The notes beneath the pieces are model-generated. The model had not been told where the DNA came from. It was given only the letters and a program-made list of their open reading frames with translations, and did not search any database. Made by a program: the position numbers and the translations under genes. 64,000 bases of DNA from Geosiphon pyriformis uo1. Taxonomy: Eukaryota > Fungi > Glomeromycota. Shown here piece by piece: positions 1-60,596 of this stretch (its first letter is position 1; the number at the start of each line of letters is the position of its first letter). Location: assembly GCA_016748015.1 (NCBI GenBank), contig JAAOMT010000639.1, positions 62,001 to 126,000 on the forward strand. Direction: 5' to 3'.

Positions 1-391
1 CCTTGACTTATTTCCTTATTTCATTTTCTTTTATTTTTCTTTTATTTTTTGTTGTTATTACTAACTCTATTAAAGAGGATTATCACACAGAGGTACTAAC
101 GTCAGAATATAGCACTAATAAAAAACCCAAAAATAAGGGTAGGATACTCGATTGAGGATAGCTTACCAGGAAAAATACTGGCCATCAAGCTGAGAAAGAA
201 ATTGACAAAACTGTGGTTTTGAGAAGCTACAAATAAAACTATTACTACTGAATCTTTGTCTATTATACAAAGAACTCAATCAAAACCTTCAGAGAAACAC
301 ATCTTCAGATTTCCAACATTAACAACAGCTTTGAGCACCAAGTTATGGGTTTTATTACTTACTCTAACATCCCAAGTAATCATTTGTAATA
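1..391 (+). repeat. 5' LTR of copy A (starts outside window)
   Basis: Similar to the D 3' LTR (37140-37561); ends TGTAATA immediately before TT-TGG. Confidence 0.85.
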
Positions 392-393
392 TT

Positions 394-410
394 TGGTGCT
401 CTCTATGAGG
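394..410 (+). promoter_or_regulatory. Primer binding site TGGTGCTCTCT(G/A)TGAGG, resembles complement of elongator tRNA-Met 3' end
   Basis: TGG 2 nt after the LTR end; same motif at 9328 and 10862. The complement CTCAC-AGAGAGC-A-CCA fits tRNA 3' geometry; tRNA identity is inferred. Confidence 0.8.
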
Positions 411-452
411 TATAATCTTACAGAAAACCAGCACCAACAACTCCATCCAAAA

Positions 453-3400: not shown

Positions 3401-6400
3401 AAGAAAAAGAATTATTACCAACCACTCTTTACATTTCTTATAACTACACAATATCACTACCAACTAACTATTGTCGGCCAAAGCTTATATGCATCAATTG
3501 CAGCAAAAAATTGTCATCAATAGGCACATGCTGTGGCAATGACAAGAAATACCATGTGGCAACCAAGTTTTATTGTTATCTGTGCATCATAGAATGGTTT
3601 AGATGACCAAAAAGGCAAGGGAAATGAGACAACAAATCCTGTCTGGCTTGTGGAAAAACACTACTTGACAAAGGAATATGGAACAACATTTCTGGTCAAG
3701 GAGGAACTTGTGATGAATTGTGTCAATACACAATTCTGATAAGTGACTGGGTTAGGAAAAAAACACCAATAGAAGCTGTCTGGAGAAGAGCTGTAAGATG
3801 TCTGGATGGTTGTCTACATAATGATGATGAAATATGGCAAAGAGTCATTGCCAAAATTAAGAGAACATTGCCTGAAGAGATCAGAGAAATCAAAAACAAC
3901 CCACCAGAACCTGTAGAACTTGACTGAGACAAAAAACCAGTCATAAATCTTCTAGAACTGGAGGAAATTCATGAACACTATCAAACTTTGGCACCTATAA
4001 AAGAAGAACAGGAAGAGCATTTAGTACAGCTAAACACTCAACTATGTAATCATTGTTTGATTCCATATGACTTTCAGTATTGTGACAAGTGTAACTTTAT
4101 CTACAATTTACCACCACGCATGATCTACACAATTTCAGAGGAAATCAAACCAATCAGCAGCTGTGCATTGAAATCAGAATCAATTTTCAATTCCAATTCA
4201 AACTCTGACAACAATGATAACAAAAACACCAGTTCTAGCTCCATTTAATATGGCAACAAAAATAACAGCAATTTGGACTTAGATTTAAACTCTGAAACAT
4301 TTATAGTGCTTCCTGATTTTACCAAAGAGCAAGAGCTAAAGTGGTTTAGTAACAATAATGAAGATATTATGCCAGAACGTGTGCATAATACTGATGCAGG
4401 GTTTGATCTGAGATATCCAGGAAAAAAAGCCATTAAATTGGAACCATATTCACACATCTACATAGATCTGAAAATTGCCATAAAAATACTAGCAACTACA
4501 ATGATTCAATTAGCTTTTAGAAGTAATTTAGTGAAAAAGGGAATCCACATCAGAGGAAGAATAATTGACGCAGGATATATAGAAAATATCATTGCTATGC
4601 TACAAAATGATTCAGAAAAGGCCTATGTAATAGAGCCAAATAAAAAAATAGTGCAGGCAATATTCCTGCCTCTGGTCAAAATAGCTCAGTTAGTGTTAGT
4701 GGGAAATAGGAAAAAATTAGGAATAACAGCAAAAGGGATACAGGGATTTGGATCAACAGATAGAGTAGAAATATCAGTTAATATGATAGAAGAAGAGATT
4801 ATTGACAAGAAAGAAATTATCTCCACCAGTCAACCAATTTCCATTCCACCATATAACCAGTATATGGTAGTCATAGAAAGGAAAGTAAAGAATCAGAACC
4901 AGATTTTTGAAGCAGAAGCAGCACATTGTAAATTAGGAGAAATTGGACTCATCTATCTTTACATACCAGCCAGAAATTATAGTTGCATCAAAATTCCCAT
5001 CTACAATAACACCAGAAAGGTTATAGAGATACCAGAAAGAACTATTATAAGACACTTAACTACTGAAATAGAGGACCAACCACCAAACCCTGTTCCAAAC
5101 TTTTTACAGCTTTGTGGTTATGTTGACATCACATTACAAACAATATATGGATAAAATAAATATTATTTGCTCCAACCAGAACGATTGGAACAAATAAACA
5201 TGAGGAATCTAGATCTACTCCAATGCATGCAGCTAAAGATGCTGCTCAACAAATTCAATAACATCTTTACCAATGAGAATAAATTTGGCAGAATTGATAT
5301 CATTTAGTATTAGATCAAAACTGGAGATGCTATGCCAATAAAATAATGAGCATACAGAGTACCACTTGCCAGCCATGAGATCATTCATTAAGAAATCAAC
5401 CAAATGTTCAACAACAGGCTAATTCAGTCATCAATAAGCCCATGGTCATCACTAGTAGTACTTGTTCAGAAAAAGAATGAGAAAATCCACTTTTGCGTGG
5501 ACTACAGAAAGCTTAATGAAGTTATGTGTGGAAACAACTATTCAACTCCACAGATTCAAGAACTATTCAATGCTTTTGGTAGAAACAAATGGTTCTCAAC
5601 ATTGGATTTAGATAGTGGTTATTGACAAGTAGCCATGGATTCAGTGGACAAAGAAAAGACCACATTCACAACACAAAAAAGAAATTTTGAATTCGAAGTG
5701 ATGCTATTTGGCTTAACAAATACACCAGCAACATTTCAACAGCTAATAGAAATAGTATATACTGGCTTATTGTGGAAATCAATAGTTGTTTATTTAAATA
5801 ACACCAATGTGTTCTCCAAAACATTCAATAATCATTTGCATCATCTACAACAAGTGTTTGAAAGGCTACAACAAGCAAAGCTAAAGTTAAATGCCAATAA
5901 GTGCTTCTTTGGCAAGACAAAATTGAACTTTTTAGGGCACATAGTAAGCAAAGATGACATCAAAACAGATCCAGAAAAGATAAAGATAGTCAAGAACTTT
6001 CCAGTTCCAATCAATGTGACAGAGTTAAAATTATTCTTGGAATTCACAGGCTATTATTGATGCTTTATCAAAAACTTTTCCAAAATAGCCCAGCCAATCA
6101 ATCATCTCCAAACCAAGAATGTGAAATATGAATAGACAGAAGCACAACAAAAAGCTTTTGATATTCTAAGAAAAAAGCTTATACAAGCTCCAGTACTAAT
6201 CTATCCAGATCACAACAAACCATTCATTATTACTACTGATGTATTAGACCAAGCATTAGAAGCAGTATTATTACAGAAAAGACCAGATGGAAGAAAACAT
6301 CCAATTGCATATGCCAGTTGAGGTTTAACTCCAGCTGAAAGAAATTATGAAACACCAGAATTAGAACACTTAGCAATTTATTGGGCAGTCATGAAATAGA

Positions 6401-6594
6401 GCAAATACTTGAGCCAGAAATTTGATGTATACACAGATCACAAGGGATTAACAGTATTTTATAAACAGGAATTTGGAGACAAAAGACAATCAAAATGGAA
6501 AATAGCATTATCACCATATACTTACACTATACATTATAAAAAGAAAAAAAACAATGGAAATGCTGATGGGTTGTCACAAATGAGACAAATCTGA
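453..6594 (+). pseudogene. gag-PR-Cys-rich-dUTPase-RT-RNaseH polyprotein of copy A
   Basis: ORF fragments 528-830, 1628-1810, 2552-2968, 3718-4248, 4273-5154, 5404-6060, 6409-6594; ends NADGLSQMRQI-stop. Confidence 0.9.
4273..5154 (+). pseudogene. dUTPase domain plus second degenerate dUTPase-like fold (copy A)
   Basis: Motifs HNTDAGFDL, RSNL, IIDAGY, KIVQAI, GIQGFGST, followed by IKIPIYNNTRKVIEIPERTII. Confidence 0.85.
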
Positions 6595-6624
6595 AAACAT
6601 TTCAACTCAAAAATATAACAAAAG

Positions 6625-7755
6625 ATAAATATACAAAAATACCAACAATTTCAACACTATATAAATACCCAATTGTTCAAGAAGAAATTATCTCAAAAGG
6701 AACAAAACAACATAAAACAACAATCAAAATATTTTATTAACCACTAAAATATACTTTACTAGAAAAACAAAAAAAATCCAGATCAATTAGCCAGAATAAT
6801 TACAGAGCCAAAGAAAGAGACAATATTATTTAACATACACTTAGATCCAACAGTAAGACATTTTCATAAAAAGGCAACTATAGAAAAAATTAGGAAAAAA
6901 TACTATTGGCCATCAATGTATCCAGACATTATCCAATATGTTCAAAATTGTAATACTTGTCAAAAAAGAGGAGAAACAAAATCCAGTAAACTATTAAGAC
7001 CAATCAAAGTGAGACAACCATTCAATTGCATTGGAATTGACTTAGTCAAATTATTAACAATCACCAGTAGAGACAACTGATATATTGCAGTAGCCATGAA
7101 CTATCTCACTAAATGGCCAAAAGCAAAAGCAATTCAAAAAGCAGATGCAGAATCTGTTGCCAAATTTGTTCATTAAGATTTGATTTGTTGATATGGATGC
7201 CCAAAAAAATTACTATCAGATCAAGGAACTTATTTTGTGAATAGAACATTAGCAGAATTAAGTCAGAGATTCGAAATTAAGAGACCATTATCATCACCAT
7301 ACCATCCACAAACCAATGGATTAGTCAAAAAATTCAACAGGACATTATGTGAAGCTATCACCAAGTTCAGCCAAGATGAATGAGATTTGTTTATATCATC
7401 AGTATTATTTGCTTATCAAACAATGAAACAAGATACTATACAAGAAATACTATTTGAATTAGTATATGGTAAAACAGCAATATTACCAGTAGAGATAGAA
7501 GTCAACATATATCCAACTGAACCAATAACAAAAGAAAATTTCCAAGAAACATTATTGAGAAGAACATATAATCTAATGGAAACTCTAGAGAACAAACAGC
7601 AAAGAACAGCTGATAACATACAAAAATTACAAGAGAAACAAAAAGAAAGACATAATAACCAACTTCCAGATAAACCAGTTGAATTCAAGATTGAAGAGAA
7701 AGTACTTTTATATTGTACCAAAGTGGAAAAACAATAGAGTGGAAAATTTAATCTG
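6625..7755 (+). pseudogene. Integrase ORF of copy A (separate from pol, truncated)
   Basis: HHCC remnant (YYWPSMY..CNTC), YLTKWP, SDQGT, YHPQTNGLV. Confidence 0.88.
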
Positions 7756-8078: not shown

Positions 8079-8092
8079 AAAGAGAGGGATAA

Positions 8093-9325: not shown

Positions 9326-9327
9326 TT

Positions 9328-9344
9328 TGGTGCTTTCTATAAAG
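9328..9344 (+). promoter_or_regulatory. PBS of copy D
   Basis: TGGTGCTTTCTATAAAG, a transition-mutated version of the A and C PBS. Confidence 0.75.
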
Positions 9345-9388
9345 TATAATTCTACAGAAAACCAGCATTAACCAACCACCATTCAAAA

Positions 9389-9935: not shown

Positions 9936-10389
9936 TGTTACCCAAGTAGAAAAACCAAAAAGCTATGGAAAAAACATGACAAAGAAATGTAACAAAAAAA
10001 ATGCAGTACAACTCGAGGTAATACAAAGCAAATGTGAACAATAGCTAGCAATAGTGAAGCAATTAAAAGCAATCCTGTAAAACCAAAAGAATGTATAAAA
10101 GCAAGTAGTTGTAAAAGTTGAAAAGACAATTAGTTAGCAATTAATTTTACTTTGTATTATATTTATTATATATCCATAGTCCGAAATACAATAAAATATC
10201 AAAAACCAAAAAGAAATCCAATTTACTACTTTATGTTTGCCAATATTACAGATTTCAATTAAAAATCAAAATCAGTATTTTCTACCTTTGTTTTAGAACA
10301 AATGCCATTAGCATAAATACCTCAAATCTTAACGATTTGGACCAATTGCTCTTGATCACAGTGATTGATGAAAACTAATTCTTTTTTTT

Positions 10390-10448
<59 letters not shown>

Positions 10449-10859
10449 CTTTATTTTTTTTTTCTTTCTTCTTTTGTTTGGAATGGTAACATAGAAAAAT
10501 TGACTGTCTTGGAATAAACTTTGTGATAGCCTGGTAAAAGAAGAAAGCTCTCTCTAAATTTTGGATATTAACATTATTTTGGTAGCTTACCAGAAGGGTG
10601 AAAAGACAACACCAGACTCTAATGACTGTGCTTGTTAGTGTAGAAAAAAAAACTTACAATTACAGAAAATGTTGCAATTGACAAAAGACAAACTCTGTGC
10701 CTTATAACCAAAGAACTCAACAGGTAAATTTACATCTAGGAATAGATCTTTAGAGACTGATAACACTGACACAGTGAAAAAAGCAGACAATCTTGAAAGA
10801 TAACCCAAAAATAGAGCACCAAACATTACTACCATATCCCATCAAGTTTACCTGTAACA
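9936..10859 (+). repeat. 5' LTR of C (with expanded poly-T ~10382-10480)
   Basis: TGTTACC...TGTAACA; near-identical to 28109-28976. Confidence 0.93.
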
Positions 10860-10861
10860 TT

Positions 10862-10878
10862 TGGTGCTTTCTGTGAAG
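10862..10878 (+). promoter_or_regulatory. PBS of copy C
   Basis: TGGTGCTTTCTGTGAAG 2 nt after the LTR end. Confidence 0.8.
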
Positions 10879-11081
10879 TTATAAATCTACAGAGACAGAG
10901 CACTCCAGAGATACACAAAAGTGGTGACTATTGAAACAATAGAAAAAGACCACTCCTTATATAGAAGAGCATTATTTCAATACTTTCGAAAAAATTTAGG
11001 AATATCAGCAGAAACCACCATCACAGAAAGTGATTTTTGTAACTATATCAATGCAAAAATCAACTGCTTGTTAAGCTGTGC

Positions 11082-11508
11082 TGTTACGGGATGGTTTTCT
11101 TGTTATATTTAATTGCTGATATCCCGCTTTAATTGCAATCAGTCTTTCGTGAGTTCCTCAATTCTATTTGTGTGATAATGTCACTGTTACACTGAAGGCT
11201 TTTTTTTTACTGTTGCGATATAAGTTATTCTTTAATTCTTGATTGTNNNNNNNNNNNNNNNNNNNNGTATATATACATGTTTGTAGTTCTACGAGAAAAT
11301 ACTTTCTTTTTGATATTTCAACCTGGTGTTTGCTGCTATCACCAGTTGGTGTTGGCTGCTATTGTGAACTGGTGCTTACCACTATTGCGAGATGGTGTTT
11401 GCTACTATGTTAATCATTACCTTTCTAAGATTATTACTGTGCTATATTATGATTGAATAGTTTGTATTATTTTTATGATTCTTTTTTCTAAATTCTTAAA
11501 CTGTAATA
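11082..11508 (-). repeat. 3' LTR of B (internal N gap); PPT AAAGGAGGGGATAA at 11509-11522
   Basis: Matches both ends of 19398-20263. Confidence 0.9.
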
Positions 11509-11521
11509 TTATCCCCTCCTT

Positions 11522-12175
11522 TCAAGATTGAGCTCCATCAAAATCGAAGTTAATTTCTTCATTAAATTCTAAGTTACTATAGTGGTTCAATACTGTGTTA
11601 TTAATTTGTTGTTGTAATTCTTGAAATTGCGAGTTGGTAAGTCGTCCAATACTGTTGGTTGTTATTATGTTCATAGTTGGGTCCAACAATAATTTGTGAC
11701 AGTTTTCAAATGCTTTGAAAATTCTGTAAACTGTTTTTGAATGGAATGTAGTGTTGGTTTTTCCAATGAAAGGTTCTAATAGTTGGATAGTTGTTTTGTC
11801 AAACACTCTAGTTGAGTCTTTTGAGTATAATGTTTGTATGTTCAAGTGCTTTCCTAGTTGATAATAACAGTAATTAATTGGGAATTTCGTTTTCAAGTTG
11901 CTAAATGTGTCTGGTGTTAATTCACTTATTTCTATTTCTTTCATTATTAATGTATTGCCCAATGCTATCTCTAATTTTTCAATAACTTTGCTAATAAATT
12001 TGTTGTTATATTTGGCAATATTATATGGTTCGAAATTATGTTCTTTTCTTGTTTTTGGATTTTCTATTGTTCTTTTGGAGCTATTAACTGTGATTTCTAG
12101 ATTGGATTTTAATTGTTGTAAGCTTTCAACTAATTGTTGAATTATATTGTTGATGTTTTCTGGAATAAATATCAT
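11522..12175 (-). CDS. ORF3: intact 217-aa retrotransposon accessory protein of unknown function (env position)
   Basis: Open ATG-to-stop ORF between integrase and PPT; homologs at 27362-28094, 35941-36588, ~8030-8078 and ~41840-42440. Confidence 0.85.
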   Translation of the reverse strand: MIFIPENINNIIQQLVESLQQLKSNLEITVNSSKRTIENPKTRKEHNFEPYNIAKYNNKFISKVIEKLEIALGNTLIMKEIEISELTPDTFSNLKTKFPINYCYYQLGKHLNIQTLYSKDSTRVFDKTTIQLLEPFIGKTNTTFHSKTVYRIFKAFENCHKLLLDPTMNIITTNSIGRLTNSQFQELQQQINNTVLNHYSNLEFNEEINFDFDGAQS

Positions 12176-12259
12176 TGTTTTAATTTTGAATGTTATTTTG
12201 GAATCTTTTGCATGTGTTTTTATGGTTGTTAAATCATTTTTGCTGTGATCTAAGATTAA

Positions 12260-13936
12260 TTATCTTTTCGAATAATGTTCAATTAAAACTATTGGTTCTA
12301 AATCTCGTGGAATTTGTTCTGGTAGAATTAAAGGTAATTGTGTTCCAATTCTGGGTGTTTTTGTTGTTATTACTGGTTTACTGTAATAGAATTTCAGCCG
12401 GTTACCATGTGCTGCTTTTCTTAATATTTTATCATCTAGTCTTAGCTTGTATGCTCCATTTCCAAGTATTTTGTGAATATAAAATAGTCCATATAACTTG
12501 TGATCANNNNNNNNNNNNNNNNNNNNTTCAATAAATAATACAAGTAGGTTTCTTAATACTTTGGGTTGTGATAGTTCAGTTTTAAATATTCTTTTTCATT
12601 TCTTTTTGATTTTAAAGATTTCTTGGGATATTTAATTTGAAAGTATGATTTAAAGTGGAGTTTGTTGAATAAAATTGGATCTATTGCTTGATAAGTTATG
12701 ATTTTTATTACTTGATTGATTATTTCCCAATATTAAAACTACTGTATATATACATGTTTGTAGTTCTACGAGAAAATACTTTCTTTTTGATATTTCAACC
12801 TGGTGTTTGCTGCTATCACCAGTTGGTGTTGGCTGCTATTGTCAACTGGTGCTTGCCACTATCGCAAGATGGTGTTTGCTACTATGTTAATCATTACCTT
12901 TCTAAGATTATTACTGTGCTATATTATGATTGAATAGTTTGTATTATTTTTATGATTCTTTTTTCTAAATTCTTAAACTGTAATATTATCCCCTCCTTTC
13001 AAGATTGAGCTCCATCAAAATCGAAGTTAATTTCTTCATTAAATTCTAAGTTACTATAGTGGTTCAATACTGTGTTATTAATTTGTNNNNNNNNNNNNNN
13101 NNNNNNAATTGTGTAGTATCTTGTTTTACTGTTCTATATGCTAATAGTACTGCTGGTATGAACAAATCCCATTCTTTTTCATGTTCGTTACTAATTTTCG
13201 CCAGTGATTCACATAATGTGCAATTAAATCTTTCAACTAATCCATTTGTTTGAGGGTGGTATGGTGATGACAGTGGTCGCTTGATTCCAAATTTTTGGCT
13301 AAGTTCTTTTAAGGTGCTGTTTACAAAGTGTGTGCCTTGATCTGATAGCAATTCTTGTGGACATCCATGTCGGCAAATTAAGTCTTCATGTATGAATTGA
13401 GCTATGGAAATAGCATCAGCTGTTTTAATAGCTCTAGCTTCTGGCCATTTGGTGAGATAGTCCATGGCTACTGCAATATAACGGTTGTTTCTTGTTGTTA
13501 TTGATAAGGGTCCAACTAAATCAATTCCGATTCTGTCAAATGGCTGTCCAACTTTTATTGGTCTTAATAATTCCGTTGTTTTTGCTCCTCCTCTTCGTTA
13601 GCATGGGTCACAATTTCTTATGTATTGGATTATGTCTGAGCTCATTTTTGGCCAATAGTAACGGCTAGTTGCATGTTGGATGGTTGCTGTTTTTCCAAAG
13701 TGGCCTGAATGAATATCTGAGTGCATGTTAAATAAGATAGTTTTTTTTTCATCTGTGCTTATAACTCTTAATGGATTATCTGGATTTTGTCGATTCCAGT
13801 AATAAAGTATGTGATTTTGGATGAAATAGTGTTTTGCTAATTTTTGGAGCTTAATTAGCTCTTTTACTGGCATTTCTTTGTCTATTTGTAGTGTTTCCAA
13901 GTATTGGCTGAGGTTTTTGTAAAGGTGGTTGTTCAT
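12260..13936 (-). pseudogene. Integrase ORF of B (own ATG at 13936; interrupted by a stop and gaps)
   Basis: MHSDIHSGHFG..CDPC HHCC, DYLTKWPEA, SDQGTHF, YHPQTNGLVERFN; C-terminal LGNGAYKL at ~12450. Confidence 0.9.
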
Positions 13937-13965
13937 TGTTGTTGTGGCGGGTGGGTTGGTGATTT

Positions 13966-16900
13966 TTATGTGTGTCTCATTCTTGACAAACAGTTGGCAT
14001 TAGCATTTTTGGTATCTTCTTTGTATTTGATAATATAATCGTATGGTGCTAACGTTTGTGACCATCTGGCGTATTTTTCTTTTAGCACTTTCTTGTTATT
14101 TAACCAGACCAGACCTCTATGATCTGTCGTAATCTCAAAGGGTTGGTACCGTAAATATGTGTCAAAGTGACACACAACTCCAGACTACTGCTAAGCATTC
14201 AAGTTCATGTGCTGCGTAGTTTTGTTCTGCCGTACTGAGACTTCTGTTGGCATAAGCGATTACACGTTCTCTTCCATTATCATCTTTTTGTGACAGAATG
14301 GCTCCAAGTCCAGTTCTAGAGGCATCTGTGGCCAAAATGAATTTCTTGTTGAAATTCGGATAGATCATTATTGGTAATTCAATGAGCTTTTGTCTAAGAT
14401 ACTTAAAAGCTTTTTGTTGTGCTTCAGTTCATTCAAACTTCACATTTTTAGATAGTAGGTAATTAAAGGGTTTGGCGATGTTTGAAAAGTTTTCTACAAA
14501 GCGGCGGTAGTAAGATACGAGTCCTAAAAAGCTTCTAACTTCTGAAACGTTTCGAGGTACTGGAAAATTTTTCACTTTGTCTATTTTTGATGGATCTGGT
14601 TTTATTCCATCTTTACCAACTATGTGTCCTAAAAATACTAGCTCATTTTTCCCAAAGAAACATTTTTCTAGATTTAGTTTAAGTCCAGCGTGTCTCAATC
14701 TCTCAAAAACTTGTTGTAAATGTTGGAGATGATCTGTGAATTTTGACAAGAAAACATTTGTATTATTCAAGTAGACAACAACGGATTGCCACAGGATTCC
14801 GGAGTAAATTACGTCCATTAGTCTTTGGAATGTCGCGGGAGCATTTGTTAATCCAAATGGCATTACATTGAACTCATAATTGCCATTTTGNNNNNNNNNN
14901 NNNNNNNNNNGTTGTTTTTCAGGTCTGGCGTCTCCAGTGGGGATTTGGTGTTGAACCAAGTTGGTTCTTCCAAATTTGCCATTTCTTGAAAATATATCAG
15001 AGTATTTTAAAATTAATGCTTTTAATTGTTGCTGTTGGTCGGGATCCATTGTTCCAATGTTTAATTTGGCCAATTCTTCTGGCGTAAATTAATAGCATTC
15101 TACTGGTTGTTGCCAATTTATTGAAGTGAGTTCACAATAGAGGGCAATTTCTGGGAAATTTAGAATTTCTTGTGGTGTTGACGTGTTTTCTAGCTCCGTT
15201 CCGAGGTATCCAATGATGGTATCTTCTGGAATGTAGACGGGTTCTTCTGTGGTGTTTGCGATAGGAATTTTTATCCATTGAGCTTTATCAGCTGGAATAA
15301 AAAGGTTAGTAAGTTTCTGAGTAAGGCTCAAATATTAGGTCTTTTTCTTTAATTGTCCTTTTTATTCTTATTTCTGATTTTCCATATGGTAGGAGCGTGA
15401 TGGACTGCTCATTTTTAATTACTTTACCTTTTTCCTCTATTGTTTCAGCGAAATTCGCTTCAATTCCTTTTTCTGTCGATCCGAAACCAAAAGTTTCTCT
15501 CGTTGTTTGTGACAATTCCTCACGATTTTCCACTGGCACGAATTTCCCAATTTTTACCAATGGTAGGAAAATTGCTTGTGCAATCTTTTTCTTAGATTCA
15601 ATAGTATAAGGCTTTTCTGAATTGTTCTGTAGCAAAACCATCAAATTTCCAGTGTATCCGGAGTCAATTACTCCTCCTTGAATGCTTATTCCTTTTTTCG
15701 CGAGGCTTGATCGCGACATCATTTGAACCATTATTCCTGGCAGAATTTCAACCGCTATTTTTAGGTCGATTTTGGTGATGCTTCTGGGTGGTAACGTTGT
15801 GGATTGGTCTTCTGGATAACGTAGATCAAATCCGGCGTCAGTTGGATGGGCTCTTTCGGGTATTATTCCTAAGTGCCCGTTGTCGAAGTATCGGATGTCG
15901 GTCACCTGTTCTATGTCAGTATAAGCTACAAATTTTTCTGACTCGGAACCGTCAGGTGAGTCTTGTTGATTTATTGATTGATTTTGAGACTGCTGATTCT
16001 CAATTTCCATTTTTCTTTCTAAGTCCTTTTCATCTTGACACTTTTCACAGCACTGACTTTGGCACGAGATGAGACAGTTTTCACAGAGGTAAGTGTTGAT
16101 TTGGGTGAGGTATTGTTCTTGCTCTTGTCGAGTGGGGCATAGTTGTTGGTAGTAGTTCTGGAATTCGTCCACTGGGTCGAACATGTTGTAGCTGGTGACT
16201 TTGTCGGCTACTTCGGCTGACTCTTTCCAATGTTGTATTTCTTCGGCAGTTCTTTCTCTTACTTTGGCTTGTACGGTGTTGTACAACTTGTCCTCGTTGT
16301 GTGGGTAGTGCTGTAGTCTTTTTAACGCTCTGTTGAACGCTGCTTCGAACAGCGTTCCTCCTCTTACCCAGTCACAGATGAGGATTGTGTATTGGCAAGT
16401 TGCGTTACACATTCCTCCTCTGCCTGGTAAGTCGTTCCAGTCGCACCCTCTTGGTAATGGTTCTCCACAAGTGAGGCACGGTTCCTCGTTCCATTTTCTG
16501 TGTCTTTCTGGGTAACCGTATTTTTCTTTGTTACAACGGTTACAATAGTAGTGGGTGGGGTTTCTTGGGTCTTCGTCCAGTGCGCTGCACGCAGTCATAG
16601 ATGAGAGTTTCTTCTTGCAAACCGAGCATTCTAGCTTTGGTCTGCGTCGCTGGTGGTTTCTTCGTGAACTTACCTGGTTCTATTCGGATCTTTTTTCGCT
16701 GGTCCACGTTGGTACGGCTGGTAGTCCTGTTCTTTGGTCATCAGCCCAAGAGAGCTGATAGGTTTCGATGGCTGGTAGTGCTGAATTTTTCTCAAATTTG
16801 AAGGTAGGTCTTTGGTTGGCGCTGGGTTTTTGGAAGTGGCCACAGGTGGCTGGAATTTTGGCCTGGTGGCCATTATAATTGATCAGAAGCTCTTGGGTGG

Positions 16901-19315
16901 TCCAGTTTAGGGTGGCGTTGGCTTTTGTTAGCCAGTCATTTCCTACTAACGCTTGATATTGTGTAGTGTCCATTACTAATACTTTTGTAGGTATTACTAT
17001 GCCGTTAATTTCGAAAGGGAATGAGTCGATTTCGCCATAAGGCAGCTTTGTACTTCCATCGGCTGTTATGATTTGGGATGTCGCGGCACGATCAACTTTG
17101 AAACCCAGTTGGTTTACTAGTTGAAGCATTACGATGCTTCCAGCGGATCCACTGTCTAAGATAAGTTTGATTGGGGTATTGTTTACAGTGGCTTCCATAT
17201 ACATAGCAGTGATTGGGCATTTTTCGTCCAATGCTGCTCCACTGAACATAGCCTCGTTTTCCTCTAATTCAAAAGGAAAAATAGCTGCAAGGCTGCTATC
17301 TTTGGTGGCAACTGCTGGTGGTATTGTCTGGCTCAATTTGGAGGAATTCTTGGTTCTGTTTATGTTTCTACCATCATTGTTTCCGATGATCAAGTTTTCC
17401 AGTATATTAAGGTAAGTTTGTTGATAATTTTGGTAGTTTGGATTGGTTTGCTGATTGGTTCCGGCGCGGTTTGGATTCCTCTGGACCAATGCATTCTGGT
17501 TCTACATGAGCTGATTTCGGGCCTCGGGACGCCAATTTGGGTTGGCTATCATGGGCTGTTGCTGGTAAGCTCCTTGATTTTGATATGTAGTGGGATATTG
17601 GCGTGGTATTGGCGTGTACTGGTTTCTGGGCATTTGGGGTGGTGCGTAGTAATTATTTTCGCGTGCTTCCTACATCATTCGCGTTCGACATTGACTAATC
17701 AAATGTCCTACGCGTTTGCAAAAATGGCAGGCGCGTGTTTCTGTTCTGAATTCCTGGCGCGACGAGCAATTATTTCGACTGTCGCTGACTTCCTAGCTGC
17801 GTCTTTGGGGTGGTTGGTATGTATTTTTTCTCAGATCCGGGATGAGATAACTTTCTATTTTCTTAAAAAGTTCCTCCCCTAATTGCGTTACTCTTTTCTC
17901 TAATGTTTCTGTCTTATTTTCTTCCATTACCATGTTAACCATTTGACTATGGTTAGCTTCTTTCTCAGCCAATTCAAGGGCTCTGGTGAGCGTAACGGCT
18001 TCTGGTAAGGAATTAGGGTGGGCAGGGCGTACTCTTCCTAAAATGCTGCTTTTTAATCCTCTAATAAACTGATTTAAAACCTGAGGATCAGTGTAGTATC
18101 CTTGTTCAATCGCTTCAATCTGACGGCGAATTCGATTGAATCGAGCAAGGTATTGGGTAACAGTTTCACCGGTATTTTGCTTGATAGTATTGAATTCGTT
18201 CTGTAGTTGAATTACGGCATTTGGGTCGCTAAAATACTCCAGGAGTGCATTTTTAAATTCGACAAAGCTCGTGGGTTTTGTTTCCAGGCTTTGATACCAC
18301 GAGTCGGCTGTGTCTTTCAGGAAGAAAGGTAATGTTTGAATTGCTCTTTGGTCATTCTAGTTATTTGCCTGGATGGCTTTTTGTGTTTTTCTGAGCCATG
18401 TGTGCATGTCCGTTTCTTCTTCCTCTCCTGAGAAATCTGTTAGTCTTGCAATGTATGGTGTGGTCATTTCGTTGCCGTTTTCTGCTGGTGGGTTTATTGG
18501 TCTAAGAGGAGGTGGGATGATATTTCCTTGAGTGTTCCTAAAAGTGGCTTCCCTTATATCCGGTTCTTCCTTTTGCTCACGAGTTTCTTGGTTTCTGGAC
18601 TGGCTGCTTGTTCCAGTGACTGGTCTTGTGATTGTTTTTTCGCTGGTCTTTTTTTCGGATTCTGATTCAGACTCTTCTTCACGGTTTTCAAACCCGTTCT
18701 AAATTTTGGCTGAAAAAGAGGGTTTTGGAATAGTGATGAATATCCTCCTGTAATTGGTATGTCTCCCCAGTTACGTTGTTTAATTTTATCAATATAACTA
18801 GGAGTTTTTGGCGTTTGTGGAGTTGATATTGATGATGATGCAGCTCCTAATGGAATTTGTATCTTATTTTCTGGTGAAAAATGGTATGATTTATCTTCTG
18901 GTGAATAAATACGTTGTTTCTTTATTGATTGAGTGACAGTTTTCTTTGGCGTTTGAGCTGGTGTTCCTAGTTTTTGCTGGTTACTTTTCTGATTAGTTTC
19001 TAAATTTTCTTTGGTTTTGTTGGCATGTTCTCTAGTGTTTTTTGTGAATATTAAAAAATTTTTGTTGGTGTATTGCTCAATTTTTCGATGGATTTTGACA
19101 ATAGTTATGGCTATTACTGCTACTTCCTTTCTAAGTTTTGCATCATGTGGTTCTTCTTTCTTTCCTATATAATAATTTATTCTGGCATTGATATAATAAG
19201 TGAGGGCAGATTCTGCTGGACAACACCCTTCTGGTAATCCAAGATCACTTTGATTTTGTGTGTAAATAGCACGGCAGAATTCAAGAACAGTAAGATTAGG
19301 GATTTTTGTCGCTAC
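13966..19315 (-). pseudogene. gag-PR-Cys-rich-dUTPase-RT-RNaseH polyprotein of B
   Basis: ORF pieces 16680-17489 (gag end fused in frame to PR), 15306-16598, 14429-15073, 14162-14368, 13966-14175; a few nonsense transitions; YLDD mutated to YLNN. Confidence 0.92.
15470..15870 (-). other. dUTPase domain of B with all five motifs
   Basis: AHPTDAGFDL / SRSSLA / GVIDSGYTG / KIAQAI / RETFGFGST. Confidence 0.92.
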
Positions 19316-19377
19316 TTTTGTCTTTTCCTTTTTAGCAATGAATTATTGCTAATTATTATTTCCTTTTTGATTTTCTT

Positions 19378-19395
19378 TCCTCGTAGGGTTCACCA
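19378..19395 (-). promoter_or_regulatory. PBS of B, TGGTGAACCCTACGAGGA (different tRNA from A/C/D)
   Basis: TGG 2 nt after the LTR end on the minus strand. Confidence 0.8.
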
Positions 19396-19397
19396 AA

Positions 19398-20263
19398 TGT
19401 TACGAGATGATTTTCTTGTTATATTTAATTGCTGATATCCCGCTTTAATTGCAATCAGTCTTTCGTGAGTTCCTCAATTCTATTTGTGTGATAATGTCAC
19501 TGTTACACTGAAGGCTTTCTTTTTACTGTTGCGATGTAAGTTATTCTTTAATTCTTGATTGTTGTGTGTGTTTATGTACTCCTTCTCAGAGGCTGAACTG
19601 AAATCTACTCACTGTTTGGGGTCTTCTCTGAGGCTATTCTTGCAATTGCCTGATGTGTTTCTCTAATCTAGAAACACAGAATGTTAATGGTCTTTAGTGC
19701 TTTTCTAATTCTCACAATAAAGCTTTTATCAATTAGTAACAACGTGAATAATCTTGATCAAGGATTATTCTTCCAAGGGATTCAGTTGATGAATGATAGT
19801 TTCATTCAATAAATAATACAAGTAAGTTTCTTAATACTTTGGGTTGTGATAGTTCAGTTTTAAATATTCTTTTTCATTTATTTTTTTTTTTTTTGTTTTC
19901 TTGGGATATTTAATTTGAAAGTATGATTTAAAGTGGAGTTTGTTGAATAAAATTGGATCTATTGCTTGATAAGTTATGATTTTTATTACTTGATTGATTA
20001 TTTCTCAATATTAAAACTACTGTATATATACATGTTTGTAGTTCTATGAGAAAATACTTTCTTTTTGATATTTCAACCTGGTGTTTGCTGCTATCACCAG
20101 TTGGTGTTGGCTGCTATTGTTAACTGGTGCTTGCCACTATCATGAGATGGTGTTTGCTACTATGTTAATCATTACCTTTCTAAGATTATTACTGTGCTAT
20201 ATTATGATTGAATAGTTTGTATTATTTTTATGATTCTTTTTTCTAAATTCTTAAACTGTAACA
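19398..20263 (-). repeat. 5' LTR of B
   Basis: TGTTAC...GTAACA termini; matches 11082-11508 and 12527-12985. Confidence 0.93.
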
Positions 20264-23200
20264 GCGCAACTGATACAAAAAAACTTGGAGAACAAATCCA
20301 TCAAATTTTACTAGGGTACTCAACAACTACCATTACTTGAGCAATTGTTGAAACTCTATGCATAGTTGATACAGACATTAAACACTACATGACACAACAA
20401 TTCTCTCAAGTACAACAACCAATAAAATCCAATCTGGAAGAATATGAAGACAGATCCAATAATCTTACAACTGCCCAAGACAAGTCCACAGTCACCAAGA
20501 AACCGAGGATCCTTTTCCCAACAACTCCATCATATTATTAGACACTCCAAAGTAGAATTGTATTCAATCCACCCCTGAAAACCCAGTCAAAAACATTATA
20601 AACTCCTGGAAATCTACACTCTTGAGGTCAACACAGTTGGACCAAACCACTAGGAGAATATGGATTACTGTTTGGAAATCTTATCTCAACAGCCAGTTAA
20701 ATAGAAGGAAACATGTCAACTTGGGAACAACCACCAGCACAAAACCCAGCAGAATCAGCATCTCTCTTGATAAAGGGAACAACTATCTTACAATCTATTG
20801 GTACAAGTGACAAAGGGAAACAACCAGCATTAACATCTGGAAAACACTTAAATACACGAACACCAATCTCCTTAAATGTAACCAGTAACATCCCATTCAT
20901 CAACTGAATCATGACTTACCGGAATATTGCTAAATTAGAGAAATTCTCTAGTGAAAAAAATAATGCATATTCTTAGATTGCGGATGCCAAGAAAGTTATT
21001 ACTGCTAATGGTTGGGACAATGACCACACAATTCAGGCACTGCCATTCTTTCTGACCAGAACCACTGATTTGTGGTACCAGAGTCTTGCAGAGAAGCCTA
21101 CTTTCTTTACAGAGTTTAAACTTGCATTTCTGCAATACTTCTGTGATCTTAATACACTTATCCAATTGCAAAATTAATTCAGTATAATAAAACAAAATGA
21201 CCATAAAGCAGTAACTACATATCTTGGAAGATTCAATTAGGTCCTTTGACAAATCCTAACCATCGAGCAGAATTATTATACTACTGCACAAGTTCTCAAT
21301 CAATTCATTAAAGGACTAAGAAACAGCCTCTTAAGATCCATACAATCTCGTCATTCGACAAACCTACAAGAAGCAGTTACTCTTACTTGTGATTTTGAAT
21401 CCACAGAATAAGAAGCAAACCATACCCAAGCCATAAATTTAGCCATCAATGAAACCTCTAACATCGATGTAAAGATAATCCAATTAAGTGAGAAATTAAC
21501 TCAGAAAATTAAGAGATTCTTAGCCAGAACTACAGAAAATTACCAACTACCACAATGAAAAGAAAATAACAACAACAACAGATACCCACAGCAACAGAAC
21601 CATTAACAACAACAACAACCTTGGAGATTTGATCTCCACAACTGTTACTACTGCCAGAAACCTGGACACATTGTCTATGACTGTAGAAAGAAAATAATAG
21701 ACCAAACTCAAGGAAACCAATATTAGCAATTAAGATATTAATAAAACATGGTATCCCAATATTTTATATCTTAAAATCAACTGCCCCAGTATGCACAACA
21801 AGTCCTGTACACTTAACCACTGCCCCAGAATTATTATCAATTACCACCAATAACACAAGCCATCCCTTACTATCAAACTTTCCTTTACAGCCAGCCCAGA
21901 CCTCGAGTTATAGACTATAATCAAGAATGAAGGAATCCCAACAACAATCAAGTACAAACCAATGGTAAACTGTCTCAACCAATTTTTCACGGTCCTGTTT
22001 CATCTTAACCAGCACCAACCAGATACCTGAATCAAGCTTCTTATCTCAGTCTTATAGAAGACCAGAGTTTTAATAAATCTATATCTGTGGAAGGAAAGAA
22101 TATAGAACAAATTTCTCCACCTTTCAAGCAAGCAAAAAGCAATATCCCACCAGCCATTATTACTGAGGACACCACCCTAGCCACTATCTTTTCTTTTGAC
22201 ATCAATAATTTGAACACCCATAGCCTTTTTAGTGGAACAGCCATCAATCAAGATAAACCAATAATGGCCCTATACACTGATGCCAGAGTTGGGGGAATAG
22301 ACATTAAATTAATCCTGAATAGCAGATTAGCCAATAGCATAATCACAAAACAGCTCATAGACCAACTAGGTCACTGAGTAGACCGTACTACTACTGCTCA
22401 GATCATTATAGTGGATGGAAACACAAAAACCCCAATAGGAAAAATTGACAACTTCTCTTTCAAGATTAATGGAATCCAGATCTCTACCAAGATACTTGTC
22501 ATGGAAGCTACTCAATATCAAGCTCTGGTAGAAAATGATTGGTTGTCAAAAGCCAATGCTACTCTCAACTGAAACACCCAAGAACTTCAATTCACAGTCA
22601 ATGGACAGCATGTCTGAGTCTTAGCTACGTGCAGACACTTTAAAACCCAATATATCAAGGAACCCCTTATTAAATTCGAAGACGTATCACTACCACCAAC
22701 CATTGAGATCTATCAGGTTTCATGAATGGACAATTATTGAACTGAACTACCTCCACTACCAACTTGGAAAGAAAAAGAAAAAGACAGAGCTGAAGAAGAA
22801 CTCTAATTGTCATCAATAGGATATGTAACTTCAGACCAAAGAAATCTATTTTACCAACCTCCAAGACTAATATGTGTTGATTGTGGAAAGAAGCTATCTA
22901 CTATGGGCGCATGTATCAAAGACAACAAAAAATGGCCCACTGTTACCAAATACTACTGCAGATCTTGTTTACTAGAAAAATTTAGATGACCAAAACAACA
23001 AGACAAATGGGACAACATGCTGTGCCTTGTATGTGGCAAGATTCTGCCTAATAAAAAACTCTGGAATGATGTGCCTGACAGAGGAGAAATATGCAATAAG
23101 GCTTGTTAGTACACCATATTAATCAACAATTGGGTACGAAAAGAAACCTCCATCAAGGACACTTGGAAATGAGCACTCAATAGACTGGACGGCTATTCAC

Positions 23201-25896
23201 ATGATAATCACAAAATTTGGAAAATGACAAGTGCCAAAGCCGAAAGTGTCATGCTTGAAGAAATACGAGAAATCAAGAACAACCCTTGGATGCTCAAATA
23301 TAATGAACTCGACTATCCCACAGATGATTTTGTCACTAATAACCCCAATGCATTTCAGAACCAATATTAAGAATTGGTCCTGACTCGAGAAGAGCAAAAA
23401 CAGTAATTTGATCTAAATACCAAACTATGTGACCACTGCTTAATTCCTTGTTACTTCCAATACTGTGACAAGTGTGATCTCATGTTTAATCCACCTCCCA
23501 GAATCCTATATCTGATTACTGAATTACCTGAGCTTGAGGAAGAAGAGGAATTACTTACCAGGGACATGTTATTTCAAGAGCCAAATCTGACTACCAAAAT
23601 AGAACAATACCTTGTATATCCTGACTTCTTCAAAGAATTATAATTAAAATGGTATAGTGACAACAATAAAAAAATATGCTCAGAAAAAGCACATAAAACT
23701 GATGCAGGTTTTGATTTAAGATATTCTGGACAATCACCTATAGTTATAGCCCCACATTCTTTGGTAAAAATAGATCTCAAAATAGCATTAGAAATTCCTG
23801 TTAGCACCATGATACAAATAGTGTTTAGATTGAGTTTTGCAAAGAAAAGAATTGATATAAAAGGAGGAATTATCAATGCCAGCTATATGGAAAACATTAT
23901 CATAATGCTGCAGAACAATTTAGACAAACCCTACAAGATCGAATCTCACGAAAAGATTGCCCAAGCCATCTTTTTACCTTTAGTCAAAATATCCCAACTA
24001 GTCCTGGTTATTATCCAAAAAAAATTAGGTCTTACTGTCCAAAGAATTAATGGGTTTGGCTCAAGTGGAAAAAGGAATGTAACAGTCAATTTTACAGAGG
24101 AGAATAATGACTAGGTAAAACTTATCTACACTGATACCATTATTTCTATCCCTCCTTATCAGCAGTACATTCTCAAAGTCAACAAAAGGATTCAAAACCA
24201 AGCACTAGTCTTTGAGGCTGATCCTGAAATCTGCTTGCTAGCTGACATCACTAACCTGTACTTATCAGCCAAAGCTTATAAACATTTCAAAATTCTTATC
24301 CACAATTCGACTGAAGACATTATCGAAATTTCTGAAGAAACTCTCATTGGTTCTATATCTTCAGATATTCAGAATTCAGAAAAACTCCACCCTATTCTAG
24401 ACTTCATTCAATTGTTCTTGTTCTGTAATATTATCTCACAAGTATAGAACCTGCCAAAGGAAAGTTATTTGTTCATGTTGGAAAAAATCAATAAACTCAA
24501 TTTGGAAAACCTGAGCACTTTACAGCAAATACAACTTTAGATTTTATTGAACCAATATACTGATGTTTTTGCCAGCAAAAATGAGTTCAGACACACTGAC
24601 ATCATGAAACACCAAATTGATATCAGAGATGCTCGACCTATTAAACAGTTAGCTTACCAAGTATTCTCATCTGGCAATAATCTGATTAAGCAAAAAGTAC
24701 AATGAATGCTTAACAACGGACTGATTAAAAAATCATTAAGCCTTTGGTCTTCTCCAGTAGTTTTAGTCACAAAAAAGAACAGGAAGGTATGATTTTGTGT
24801 GGATTACTGAAAATTAAATAACATTACCTGAAGAGATAGCTATCCTACTCCTCTTATCCAAGAAATCCTAGACAACTTAGAAAAAAAGAAATGGTTCTCA
24901 TCACTAGATCTAGCCAGTGGATATTGACAAGTCAAAATGGACCCAAAAAACAAAGAAAAAATGGCATTTACCACCCAAGATGGAAACTTTGAATTCAACA
25001 TAATGTCTTTTGAACTGTACAATACTCCCGCTATCTTCTAATGTTTTATGAATGTTGTGTATAAAAGAATCTTGTAGAAATTGGTCATAGTATATCTGGA
25101 TGATACCAATGTATTCTCAGAAACATTCAACAAACATTTGCTCTATTTGCAACAAGTCTTCAAACACCTTCAAGATGCTGGATTGAAATTCAACCTTGAT
25201 AAATGCTTTTTTGAAAAAACTTAACTGAAATTCTTAGAACATGTAATCAGCAAAGACAGAGTAAAACCTGATCCAGACAAAATCCAAAAGGTCAAAAATT
25301 TTCCAGCCCCAATTAACTTACGAGAGCTACAAAAATTTTTAGGATTGGCTAAATACTACTGCCAATTCATTAAAGGATTCTCAACTATCACAAAATCCCT
25401 TCATTACTTGTTGTCCAAATACATGCCATACCTGTGGAAAAAAGAGCAACAAAAGATCTTTGACTATCTTAAATAGTAATTAATTACATCTCCAATACTA
25501 ATCTATTCCAACTTTACCAAATAATTCATTGTTGCTACAAATGCATTAAAGAATGCACTAGAAGCTGTATTATTACAAATAGAACCAGACAGAAGAAAAC
25601 ATTCAATTGCCTATGTTAGTCATAGTACCAGCCCAGCAGAAAAAATATATAGCACAATGGATTTGAAATGCCTTGCCATTTATTGGGCCATACAAACATG
25701 GAAACACTATCTCAGACAATTATTTGACTTATATACCAATTATAAGGAACTTATCTGATTATTCAATAACCCACAGCTGGAAGAAAAATATGTGAAATGG
25801 AATACTTATCTGCAACAATTCTTACTCAAAGTTTATTACAAGGAAGGATCCAAGAACACCAATGCCGACAGTTTGTCGAAAATGCCACAAACCTAA
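20264..25896 (+). pseudogene. gag-pol of C (continues 10921-11081)
   Basis: Capsid IAKLEKFS, CCHC CYYCQKPGHIVYDC ~21643, PR, Cys module, dUTPase 23690-24070, RT with YLDD at 25093, RH ending NADSLSKMPQT-stop. Confidence 0.9.
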
Positions 25897-25906
25897 TCTT
25901 GGATCC

Positions 25907-27277
25907 ATGGACACACTTACTTATTAACGATTACATCAGTATCTATTGACACTACATTTTAAAGAAATATTATCTCAACAGGAACAAAATACTATATGGA
26001 AACAAGTATGAAATTACTTTATTCAAAATGACCAACTCTATCATCAAGAATAACGAAACCACATCATCTTACAATGATTAATTAAGGACAATAAAAAAGA
26101 AGCTATATTATATAGTATGCATTCTGACTCAACTGCAGAACACTTCAACAAAGACATGACTCTGAAAAGAACAACAAATCTATACTATTGGCCTATGATA
26201 TATAAGGATATCTTTGAATATGTTCTCAATTGTGACTTATGCCAGCAAAAAGGAGGAGCCAAAATAATGGAACCATTTCGACCCATTCCAATTGGAAATT
26301 CATTTGATAGAATTAGGATCAATTTGGTTGGTCCTCTCTCAATTACATCCAAAGGAAATTGTTACATTGCAGTAGCCGTAGACTACCTTACAAAATGGCC
26401 AGAAGCCAGAGCAATTCAAATAACTAACACCAAAACAGTAGCCAAATTTGTACACCAAGATCTAATATGCAGACATGGATGTCTGAAAGAACTGTTATCA
26501 GATCAAAGAACACATTTCATCAATACTATGTTAACTGAATTAAGTCAATGTTTTGATATAAAATAACTTCTATTATTACCATATCATCCACAAACAAATG
26601 GACTGGTAGAACAGTTTAACAGGACATTATGTGAAGCATTAGCAAAAATAAGTTATGAAAATAAACAAGAATGGGACTTATTCATATCTTCTGTATTCTT
26701 TGCATATCAAACATTAAAGCAAAATACGACACAGTTTGCACTATTTGAATTAGTCTATAGAAGAAAAGCAATATTACCTATTGAATAAAAAATAGTGTCC
26801 TACCCAACAAAAACTATCAATGAAAAAAATTTTAAAGTTACCTTATGCCAAAGAATATACCAGCTAATAAAAATGTTAGAAAACAATTGTAGAACAGCAG
26901 CTGACAATATTAGTAATGCTCAAGAATGACAAAAAGAAAGACATAATAATCACCTATCCAAACAACCAATAGAATTTAAAATTGGAGACCAAGTACTATT
27001 ACATTATACAAAAGCAGAAAAACAATGGAGTGGAAAGTTTGACCCAAAGTGGGATGGCTCATTTCACATACATGAAGCTTTAGGAAATGGAGCTTACAAA
27101 TTACAATTGAAAAACAAAATTTTAAAGAAAATAGCTCATGGAAATTGATTAAAAATTTATTATGTGAAACAATAGTCATTGTCATCAGTATATCAACTAG
27201 AAACACAAATCCTATTAATCAGACCAGAAGATATATCATGAAATTTGGAACCAATCATTATCATTATCAAAACATAG
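25907..27277 (+). pseudogene. Integrase ORF of C (ATG 10 nt after pol stop; 457 codons with internal stops)
   Basis: MHSDSTAEHF..CDLC, DYLTKWPEARA, YHPQTNGLVE, KFDPKWDG. Confidence 0.9.
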
Positions 27278-27361
27278 ACAACATGTAGCAAATTAAATTG
27301 GAAAATTCAAGTATATATACTACCCAGAAAACAATAAAAAAATGATAGAACCTTTTTCAAT

Positions 27362-28094
27362 ATGGATCTTTCAGATCAAATTCTACAACTTTTGAAACAA
27401 CTGTTTAACACAATTCAACAATCTTCCACTCAAATAGAAATCACAATTGATAAAAAAAAGATATAATACAGGGATAAGAGCAAGAAAAGGGTGGACAAAA
27501 ATTCAACTAGAACTAAGCTGTCCCACTTTTACAAGCAAACCTCTCTCTATGAAAGAAAAAAAAAAGAATACAGTGAGGATAGGATCCAACACAGCTAAAG
27601 AGAAGGTGAAGATGACAAAAATGGAACTATGTTAGGTGAAAATTGAGGAAATAAGGAAGGAACTGAACAGGCAAACACCAAAGCTGGTAACAGGAGAATG
27701 AACACCTAAAAATACAAAGAAATGAAAAAAGAAACTTCCACTCATTTATTGGCTATTTAAAATTGGGTTGCAATTAGGATTAAATAGCCCATATGAAGAC
27801 CTCAACCATTGAATGATTAACAAAGAAACCTACAGACAAGTAGAAGAATTCATGAGAAAAAACAACTTAAATCTATACTACAAAACAACATACCAACTAC
27901 ATTTAGCATTTAAACACTGTCCAACAGTACTACTAAACAAAACTCTGAAAACTATTACAGTCAACGACATAGAACAGATAACAAACACCCAATTTGAAGT
28001 TCTACAAAAAGCAATACTAAAGGCAACATTTGAGTTCTTTATGAAAAACACAAACTTGGCTGAAATAGATGATTTCACAGGAGCTCAATTTTAA
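27362..28094 (+). pseudogene. ORF3 homolog of C
   Basis: MDLSDQILQLLKQLFNTIQQ...ITNTQFEVLQK...DDFTGAQF-stop, then PPT. Confidence 0.82.
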
Positions 28095-28108
28095 AAAGAG
28101 AAGAATAA

Positions 28109-28976
28109 TGTTATCTGAATAGAAAAACCAAAAAGCTATGGAAAAAACATAACAAAAAAATGTGACAAGAAAAACGTGGTACAACTCAAGGTAACACAGA
28201 GCAATAGCTAGCAATAACGAGCAATAGCTAGCAATAGTGAAGCAATTGAAAGCAATCCTGTAAAACCAAAAGAATGTATAAAAGCAAGTAGTTGTAGAAG
28301 TTAAAAAGACAGTTAGTTAGCAATCAATTTTACTTTGTATTATACTTATCATATATCTATAGTCTGAAATACAATAAAATATCAAAAACCAAAAAGAAAT
28401 CCAATTTATCACTTCATGTTTACCAATATTATGGATTTCAATTAAAAATTGAAATCAGTATTTTCTATCTTTGTTCCGGAACAAATGCTATTAGCATAAA
28501 TGCCTCAAACCTTAACAATTTGGACCAATTGCTCTTGATCATGGCAATTGACAGGAACTAATTCTTTTTTTTTTTTTTTGTTTTTTTGTTTTGTTTGGAG
28601 TAGCAACATAGGAAAATCGACTGTCTTGAAATAGACTTTATGATAGCCTGGTAAAAGAAAGAAGCTCTTCTTAAATTTTGGATATTAACGTTATCTTGGT
28701 AGTTTACCAGAAGGGCAAAAAGACAATACTGAACTCTAATAACTGTGCTTGTTAGCATAGAAAAAAAAACTTACAATTATGGAAAACATTGTAATTGACA
28801 AAAGACAAACTCTGTGCCTTATAACCAAAGAATTCAACAGGTAAATTCACATCCAGGAATAGACCTTCAGAGACTGATAATACTAACATGGTGGAAAAAG
28901 CAGACAATTTTAAAAGATAACCCAAAAATAGAGCACCAAATATTACCACTATACCCCACCAAGTTTACTTATAATA
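28109..28976 (+). repeat. 3' LTR of C; PPT 28095-28108
   Basis: Pairs with 9936-10859. Confidence 0.92.
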
Positions 28977-34469: not shown

Positions 34470-34500
34470 AAACATTTCAAACCCAAAAATATAACAAAAG

Positions 34501-35900: not shown

Positions 35901-35940
35901 TATATAAGGAACCAAAGTATGTAACAACAACAACAAAAAA

Positions 35941-36588: not shown

Positions 36589-36602
36589 AAAGAAGAAAAT
36601 AA

Positions 36603-38390: not shown

Positions 38391-38399
38391 TATACTTAG

Positions 38400-60561: not shown

Positions 60562-60596
<35 letters not shown>

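Follow-up and report, generated by a model that had tools for sequence, protein, structure and literature searches.

In a 64,000-nucleotide window of the Geosiphon pyriformis genome (the whole stretch analysed; contig JAAOMT010000639.1, positions 62,001 to 126,000), positions 11082-20263 are exactly one long terminal repeat (LTR) element on the minus strand, copy B, which is one of five related elements (A to E) of a Ty3/Gypsy lineage. In this lineage the first open reading frame (ORF1) stops 10-31 nt before a separate integrase ORF, which is followed by a conserved ORF3, and integrase is likely translated by ribosomes that restart after the ORF1 stop; we hold this reading as a whole with moderate confidence. 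The comparisons establish that the layout has three ORFs, that three LTR families and a near-intact relative have kept it, and that the added modules are under constraint as proteins.

Integrase outside the polyprotein

The region of copy B downstream of RNase H contains the following features.

13937..13968, minus strand: ORF1 stop and spacer (TAA at 13968-13966, then a 29-nt A/C-rich spacer)
12260..13936, minus strand: ORF2, integrase (ATG at 13936; HHCC, DDE core and GPF/SH3 tail; stop at 12262-12260)
within 12260..13936, minus strand: breaks in ORF2 (two N gaps and the duplicate 12527-13086 in the scaffold)
11522..12175, minus strand: ORF3 (217 aa, helical, no transmembrane segment; its stop abuts the polypurine tract)

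A stop after RNase H, at the same codon following an NADxLS motif, is present in all five window copies, and a sixth element stops one codon earlier. The latter, L001, lies on a metagenome contig found via a relative of ORF3 (the metagenome scan yielded at least one locus) and is near-intact: its ~710 codons contain a single internal stop, and eight Trp codons are kept. The spacers from RNase H to integrase measure 30 (A), 29 (B), 10 (C), 31 (D), 10 (E) and 24 nt (L001); they fall in three phases and place integrase out of frame with RNase H in four of the six elements. Integrase begins with ATG in B, C and L001 and with ATA in A, D and E, where the ATA is presumably a decayed ATG. Two claims of an earlier sequence-only reading, that a stop follows RNase H and that integrase is an ORF of its own, are thus borne out. 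The integrase frame is under constraint, as judged from an excess of transversions at third codon positions (A vs D, p=0.004; two LTR controls of this test gave p=0.88 and 0.86). A homologue search with integrase residues 1-130 matched none of 32 candidates, and viral-contig scans returned 0 of 57 for an ORF3 relative and 0 of 12 for the L001 integrase.

Judged from the sequences, the break between RNase H and integrase is one of design and not of decay, because point decay cannot yield spacers of three phases; for the same reason, no single readthrough or frameshift rule fits the six junctions. The functional design claimed at the outset is accordingly retained, as all six elements share the stop and four spacers are not multiples of three. 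Three observations weigh on the other side: the start codon of integrase reads ATA in half of the elements, integrase is in frame with RNase H in A and L001, and one integrase Trp column has become a stop in four of six elements by parallel decay. The last of these belongs to a rival account, in which the elements had an ordinary gag-pol frame and the break arose in parallel through decay of a hypermutable codon, an account that we consider very improbable and already largely refuted. The RNase H stop is TGA in A and TAA in others, which resembles a decaying Trp codon, and because parallel decay does make shared stops in these elements, the crude chance of a shared RNase H stop under average stop rates (2e-9) is overstated. 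However, this account does not fit the differing lengths of the junctions or their loss of frame, nor the near-intact L001 with its stop one codon earlier. In addition, no indel at ≥35% occurs in the copy B spacer in sequencing run X1 (40 of 202 substitution rows and all eight indel rows of the comparison with copy B were examined).

ORF3 and the modules of ORF1

ORF3 is a conserved family of ~220 aa that is present in B, C, D and E, and a profile-free search of 1.84 billion representatives returned 45 relatives; the 20 that were looked up comprise 18 Geosiphon and two metagenome proteins. Full-length members have an equivalent Met start, shared by the five closest relatives, and end at the polypurine tract. 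The proposal of a third conserved ORF therefore stands, while its placement at the env position is correct only as a positional label, as ORF3 has no envelope traits. An env assignment was rejected for lack of a hydrophobic segment (maximum Kyte-Doolittle 19-aa means of 1.05 and 0.64; one or two Cys) and from an all-helical structural model with a predicted local distance difference test (pLDDT) score of 76. Homology to the N-terminal extension of ORF1 was likewise rejected (probability 0.1%). Every family has a conserved DNA word, GAGCTCAATYTT, that precedes its polypurine tract and overlaps the end of ORF3 (~11505-11540, 8060-8100 and 28075-28115, and 3090-3120 in L001).

Third-position transversions are in excess in ORF3 between B and D (p=0.002). 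Against this, constraint is not significant between C and E (p=0.5; 0.23 for transversions), and ORF3 is in frame with integrase in B, C and D (spacers of 84, 84 and 45 nt), behind one or two stops. The latter fact favors a bicistronic layout in Geosiphon, in which ORF3 extends integrase at its C terminus, by fusion or readthrough, and the stops that separate the two result from decay: the shared frame holds in all three readable copies (a chance of 1 in 27; E is out of frame), and the intervening stops are TAA or TAG, products of C-to-T decay. We nevertheless regard this layout as improbable, since the positions of the Met in B, C and D differ by no more than one codon and many library proteins have it too, the spacer peptides of different families do not align, and in L001 ORF3 begins 316 nt past the integrase stop in another frame. 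Thus, the description of the lineage as tricistronic is upheld by L001 and by Met conservation, although not by copy B alone.

ORF1 of copy B is made up of the following segments.

18468..19342, minus strand: N-terminal extension (~290 codons with no in-frame AUG; copy-specific frameshift near 18692)
17682..18467, minus strand: capsid and CCHC knuckle (Met at 18467; PF03732, PF19259)
16926..17195, minus strand: aspartic protease (LDSGS)
16014..16649, minus strand: Cys-rich module (several CxxC pairs, helical core)
15474..15866, minus strand: dUTPase, trimeric type (motifs AGFDL, RSSLA, GVIDSGYTG, AQ, FGFGST)
13969..15322, minus strand: linker, reverse transcriptase (RT) and RNase H (N gap 14891-14910; copy-specific frameshift near 14171)

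Pfam matches in copy B run in the order gag, CCHC knuckle (weak), aspartyl protease, dUTPase, RT, RNase H and integrase, and the full order within ORF1 places the N-terminal extension ahead of the capsid and CCHC knuckle, followed by the protease, the Cys-rich module, the dUTPase, RT and RNase H. The sequence-only reading had this order right but omitted the conserved N-terminal domain. With the inserted copy B removed, copy C carries all ORF1 motifs, from the primer-binding site (PBS) to RNase H, in a single ~1,950-codon frame, so that Gag and the enzymes form one fusion that needs no frameshift. Among solved structures, the best Protein Data Bank matches are those of Ty3 for both RT (E=1e-45) and integrase (E=9e-37). 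The stops of copy B at 16681 and 17503 and its frameshifts at 14171 and 18692 are absent from the family majority in run X1 contigs.

The Cys-rich module (~210 aa) and the dUTPase are conserved in A to D between protease and RT, as had been claimed. The former shows a third-position transversion excess between A and D (p=0.0005) and may bind zinc. Its structural model is poor (pLDDT 57), and neither it nor ORF3 has a Pfam match at threshold; fold searches with ORF3 and the module gave best Z scores of 5.8 and 6.0, to generic helices. Both are probably new protein families, with no specific fold recognized in these searches. A search with the module among proteins of 801-2285 aa gave seven matches, all from Geosiphon; L001 begins within RT. 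The dUTPase (PF00692, E=2e-24; five motifs aligned) shows such an excess too (A vs D, p=4e-6) and likely keeps uracil out of the cDNA. Constraint on ORF3, the Cys-rich module and the dUTPase likewise speaks for design. Between dUTPase and RT lies a conserved linker of ~150 aa (15000-15470) with a faint echo of dUTPase strands, possibly a degenerate duplicate of the dUTPase.

The N-terminal extension has a motif, AES..Y(I/V)N.(R/K)I, that is conserved in three families, its frame is unbroken in other family-B proteins, and it has no Pfam match at threshold. Its third-position transversion excess reaches p=0.02 between A and D; against constraint stands the comparison of B with A, which is not significant over the 65 nt aligned. 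No in-frame AUG occurs over the first ~290 codons of ORF1 in copy B, and among the variants at ≥8% in run X1 none supplies one or removes the two stops upstream of ORF1, at 19351 and 19345. The claim that gag lacks an AUG start holds to this extent, but a Met precedes the capsid in A, B, C and D, and copy A has an in-frame ATG inside the PBS, which may be a product of CpG decay. For the extension to be translated without an AUG, ORF1 would need to begin at a near-cognate codon or in an LTR exon joined by splicing, and one or the other is likely; the capsid Met may serve as a second start. The ORF1 frame of A, B and C is in phase with a TAA of the LTR end and with TTG GTG codons of the PBS (387-400, 9321-9334, 10855-10868 and 19402-19389; the 5' piece of D is frameshifted after it), and these codons are candidate near-cognate starts for ORF1.

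Expression of integrase and antisense RNA

In the mechanism that we propose, integrase would be translated by termination-reinitiation after the ORF1 stop. The six spacers of 10-31 nt, mostly A/C-rich (those of A, B and L001 contain at most one G), fit with restart after termination. In the available text of PMC10275272, viral restart is effective over distances of up to ~20 nt and declines past ~30 nt; the users listed include fungal viruses and the retrotransposon SART1. It is the spacing that suggests restart, and it does not do so evenly: three of the six spacers (29-31 nt) are at the edge of the published range, and only a weak 7-bp hairpin precedes the stop (-3.5 kcal/mol; one of seven pairs with a two-sided change). 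Gag and the enzymes in one frame would be made 1:1, and restart at a minority rate would give small amounts of integrase. The free integrase would then enter the particle through RNA or Gag binding and not via the polyprotein.

The same layout could alternatively be expressed with integrase, and ORF3, translated from subgenomic RNAs that arise by splicing or from an internal start, which we judge unlikely, if the most serious competitor to restart. Foamy viruses reportedly make Pol from a spliced or subgenomic RNA, and the host of these elements splices element RNA readily, at least in antisense. An AG with an upstream CTRAY-like word lies just before the RNase H stop in B, L001 and A, but the word coincides with the conserved N-A-D codons, and copy C has no AG between it and the integrase ATG. 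Sense (CT..AC) ends were found in none of the 15 joints listed (eight more are unlisted), where thin integrase cover makes their absence no evidence. Subgenomic RNA alone, moreover, would not explain a spacer of 10-31 nt in six of six elements. The case is different for the 316 nt between integrase and ORF3 in L001, which exceed the reach of restart, and ORF3s of rotifer elements are typically expressed from spliced messages (PMC5408684, in its available text). Alongside restart for integrase, a subgenomic RNA of its own likely encodes ORF3, which is probably a soluble accessory protein and, as a guess by position and analogy, most plausibly acts on element expression or against host silencing.

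The antisense splicing maps to the gag-pol region of copy B.

15115..19535, plus strand: span of the putative antisense transcript of family B (multiply spliced, with 12 joints and no long ORF)

The joints come from contigs of runs X2 and X3, from two studies, which are labelled 'DNA?' and 'probably DNA'. Ten are GT..AG on the plus strand and two have one differing letter; donors are GTRAGT-like. Because none of the 12 joints occurs in DNA run X1, from the same sample as X2, we infer that these contigs represent spliced RNA antisense to gag-pol. The transcript is further linked to the ORF3 region and the LTR. A protein product was rejected, with a longest open stretch of 120 codons and 38-53 stops per frame (in the letters of copy B), and the RNA may reflect regulation, host defence, or readthrough from one locus.

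Genomic setting and comparison with known systems

The window is fungal (Glomeromycota), as shown by the gene at 61468-62979, whose product matches a Geosiphon pyriformis protein at 100% identity and has its next relatives in Ambispora. Host genes at 50786-62982 (minus strand) are a NADPH oxidase/ferric reductase-like gene, a dual-specificity phosphatase with a rhodanese domain and a KAT11/Rtt109 acetyltransferase. The first 48 kb hold the five LTR elements: A is truncated, D is split by C, C is split by B, and E is eroded.

1..7749, plus strand: copy A (5' LTR end, PBS at 392, ORF1, RNase H stop 6592, truncated integrase)
9936..28974, plus strand: copy C (both LTRs, 4-bp flanks GTGA/GTAA, RNase H stop 25894, integrase ATG 25907, ORF3 ATG 27362; B inside)
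28975..37561, plus strand: copy D, 3' part (5' part ~9326-9935, split by C; RNase H stop 34467, ORF3 ATG 35941)
40950..46431, minus strand: copy E (strongly G+C-eroded relative of C; RT, RNase H stop 43896, integrase, ORF3 traces)

The termini of copy B are as follows.

19398..20263, minus strand: 5' LTR (866 bp, TGTTAC...GTAACA)
19380..19397, minus strand: PBS (TGG start, 2 nt past the LTR)
11082..11521, minus strand: polypurine tract and 3' LTR (N gap 11247-11266)
11078..11081 (GTGC) and 20264-20267 (GCGC): 4-bp target-site duplication (B sits in the 5' coding region of C)
12527..13086, minus strand: duplicate of the ORF3 tail, polypurine tract and LTR start (inside integrase, between two N gaps)

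The LTR pieces of copy B are 97-98% alike. Four 20-N gaps in the scaffold hide parts of its RT, integrase and 3' LTR, and the segment at 12527-13086 is most likely a scaffolding artefact; a real internal LTR was rejected, as N gaps flank it on both sides and it duplicates 11267-11609. The earlier assertion that divergent copies share the layout is supported, among other features by the RNase H stop common to the five copies and L001, but copy B itself is incomplete. Similarly, the families said to have unrelated LTRs number three LTR types (A/D, B and C/E) and not five separate ones. Integrases of the six elements are 39-70% identical to each other.

Insertions at 9326-37561 are nested at three levels, with B inside C inside D, every inner insertion lying in the 5' coding region of the outer element, and with 4-bp duplications GTGC/GCGC and GTGA/GTAA. 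Copy E and its flanks (38000-48000) fall to 10-18% G+C through extreme C-to-T/G-to-A erosion, a transition bias also seen in the younger copies. Two copies of a 690-bp segment (45112-45780 and 47307-47983; 76%) lie in or beside copy E and break its RT region, and a C-type LTR with a 10/20-bp tandem repeat inside lies at 8136-8389. Many 'hypothetical proteins' of G. pyriformis (among proteins P0008-P0059) are gene-model chimeras of element pieces. The window copies are themselves dead; they belong to the LTR expansion reported over 41% of the Geosiphon genome (available text of PMC11952901).

With canonical Ty3/Gypsy elements (Ty3, DGLT-A and single-ORF fungal families), this lineage shares direct LTRs (TG...CA), a tRNA PBS, a polypurine tract, target duplication, a Ty3-type capsid, the order gag-protease-RT-RNase H-integrase, and an HHCC/DDE/GPF integrase. 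It differs in that integrase lies outside the Pol polyprotein, behind a stop and spacer in six of six elements, and in its ~290-codon AUG-less N-terminal extension, Cys-rich module, conserved non-env ORF3, 4-bp target duplication and lack of a chromodomain match. The chromodomain of Chromoviruses was sought at E up to 1 in the tail of B and the full integrase of C, both decayed, and only SH3_Tf2-1 was matched. In contrast to Errantiviruses and other env-bearing Gypsy elements, ORF3 has no envelope glycoprotein features.

Not every departure from the canonical plan is new. Fused single gag-pol frames are published (available text of PMC2864245; PMC5911963), as are extra ORFs and, in the parts of the literature accessible to us, a dUTPase between protease and RT in Postia PosPlaTy3-5, Phanerochaete, Tuber Tmt1, rotifer Juno, Vesta and TelKA, and planarian Burro. 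As described there, the dUTPase-bearing Gypsy elements have integrase as part of Pol, unlike here. The rotifer families among them also have diverse non-env ORF3s, but those belong to the env, TM, GDSL or DEDDy types, none of which the present ORF3 matches, and the extra Zn knuckle of Juno follows its dUTPase, whereas the present ~210-aa module precedes it. Searches of the open literature, which did not extend to Repbase, subscription papers or supplements (including the structure table of PMC2864245), turned up no Gypsy element that carries integrase in a separate ORF. We advance only tentatively, as somewhat doubtful in its entirety, the fuller picture of an undescribed branch with a restart-translated integrase outside the polyprotein that is packaged in trans, an AUG-less Gag, a new ORF3 accessory family and zinc module, and a host or element answering with spliced antisense RNA.

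LTR retroelements are assumed to bring integrase into particles as part of Gag-Pol, and a lineage that encodes integrase apart must solve dosage and packaging another way. Such a lineage would let two processes be studied in nature, fungal restart downstream of a very long ORF and the packaging of integrase in trans. Its conserved RNase H stop would be taken for damage by annotation tools. In caliciviruses, CHV1, HvV190S and SART1, as far as the accessible descriptions go, the downstream ORF starts at most ~30 nt past the stop of a long ORF, like here; unlike in these termination-reinitiation systems, the present junction has no stop-start overlap and no identified upstream restart element, and it lies inside pol.

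Two further groups offer parallels to the separate integrase. DIRS elements encode their integration enzyme apart from Gag, although this is a tyrosine recombinase and the termini are of another kind. Foamy viruses encode Pol apart from Gag but keep integrase within Pol and have env, and foamy integrase is the second-best solved-structure match of the integrase described here.

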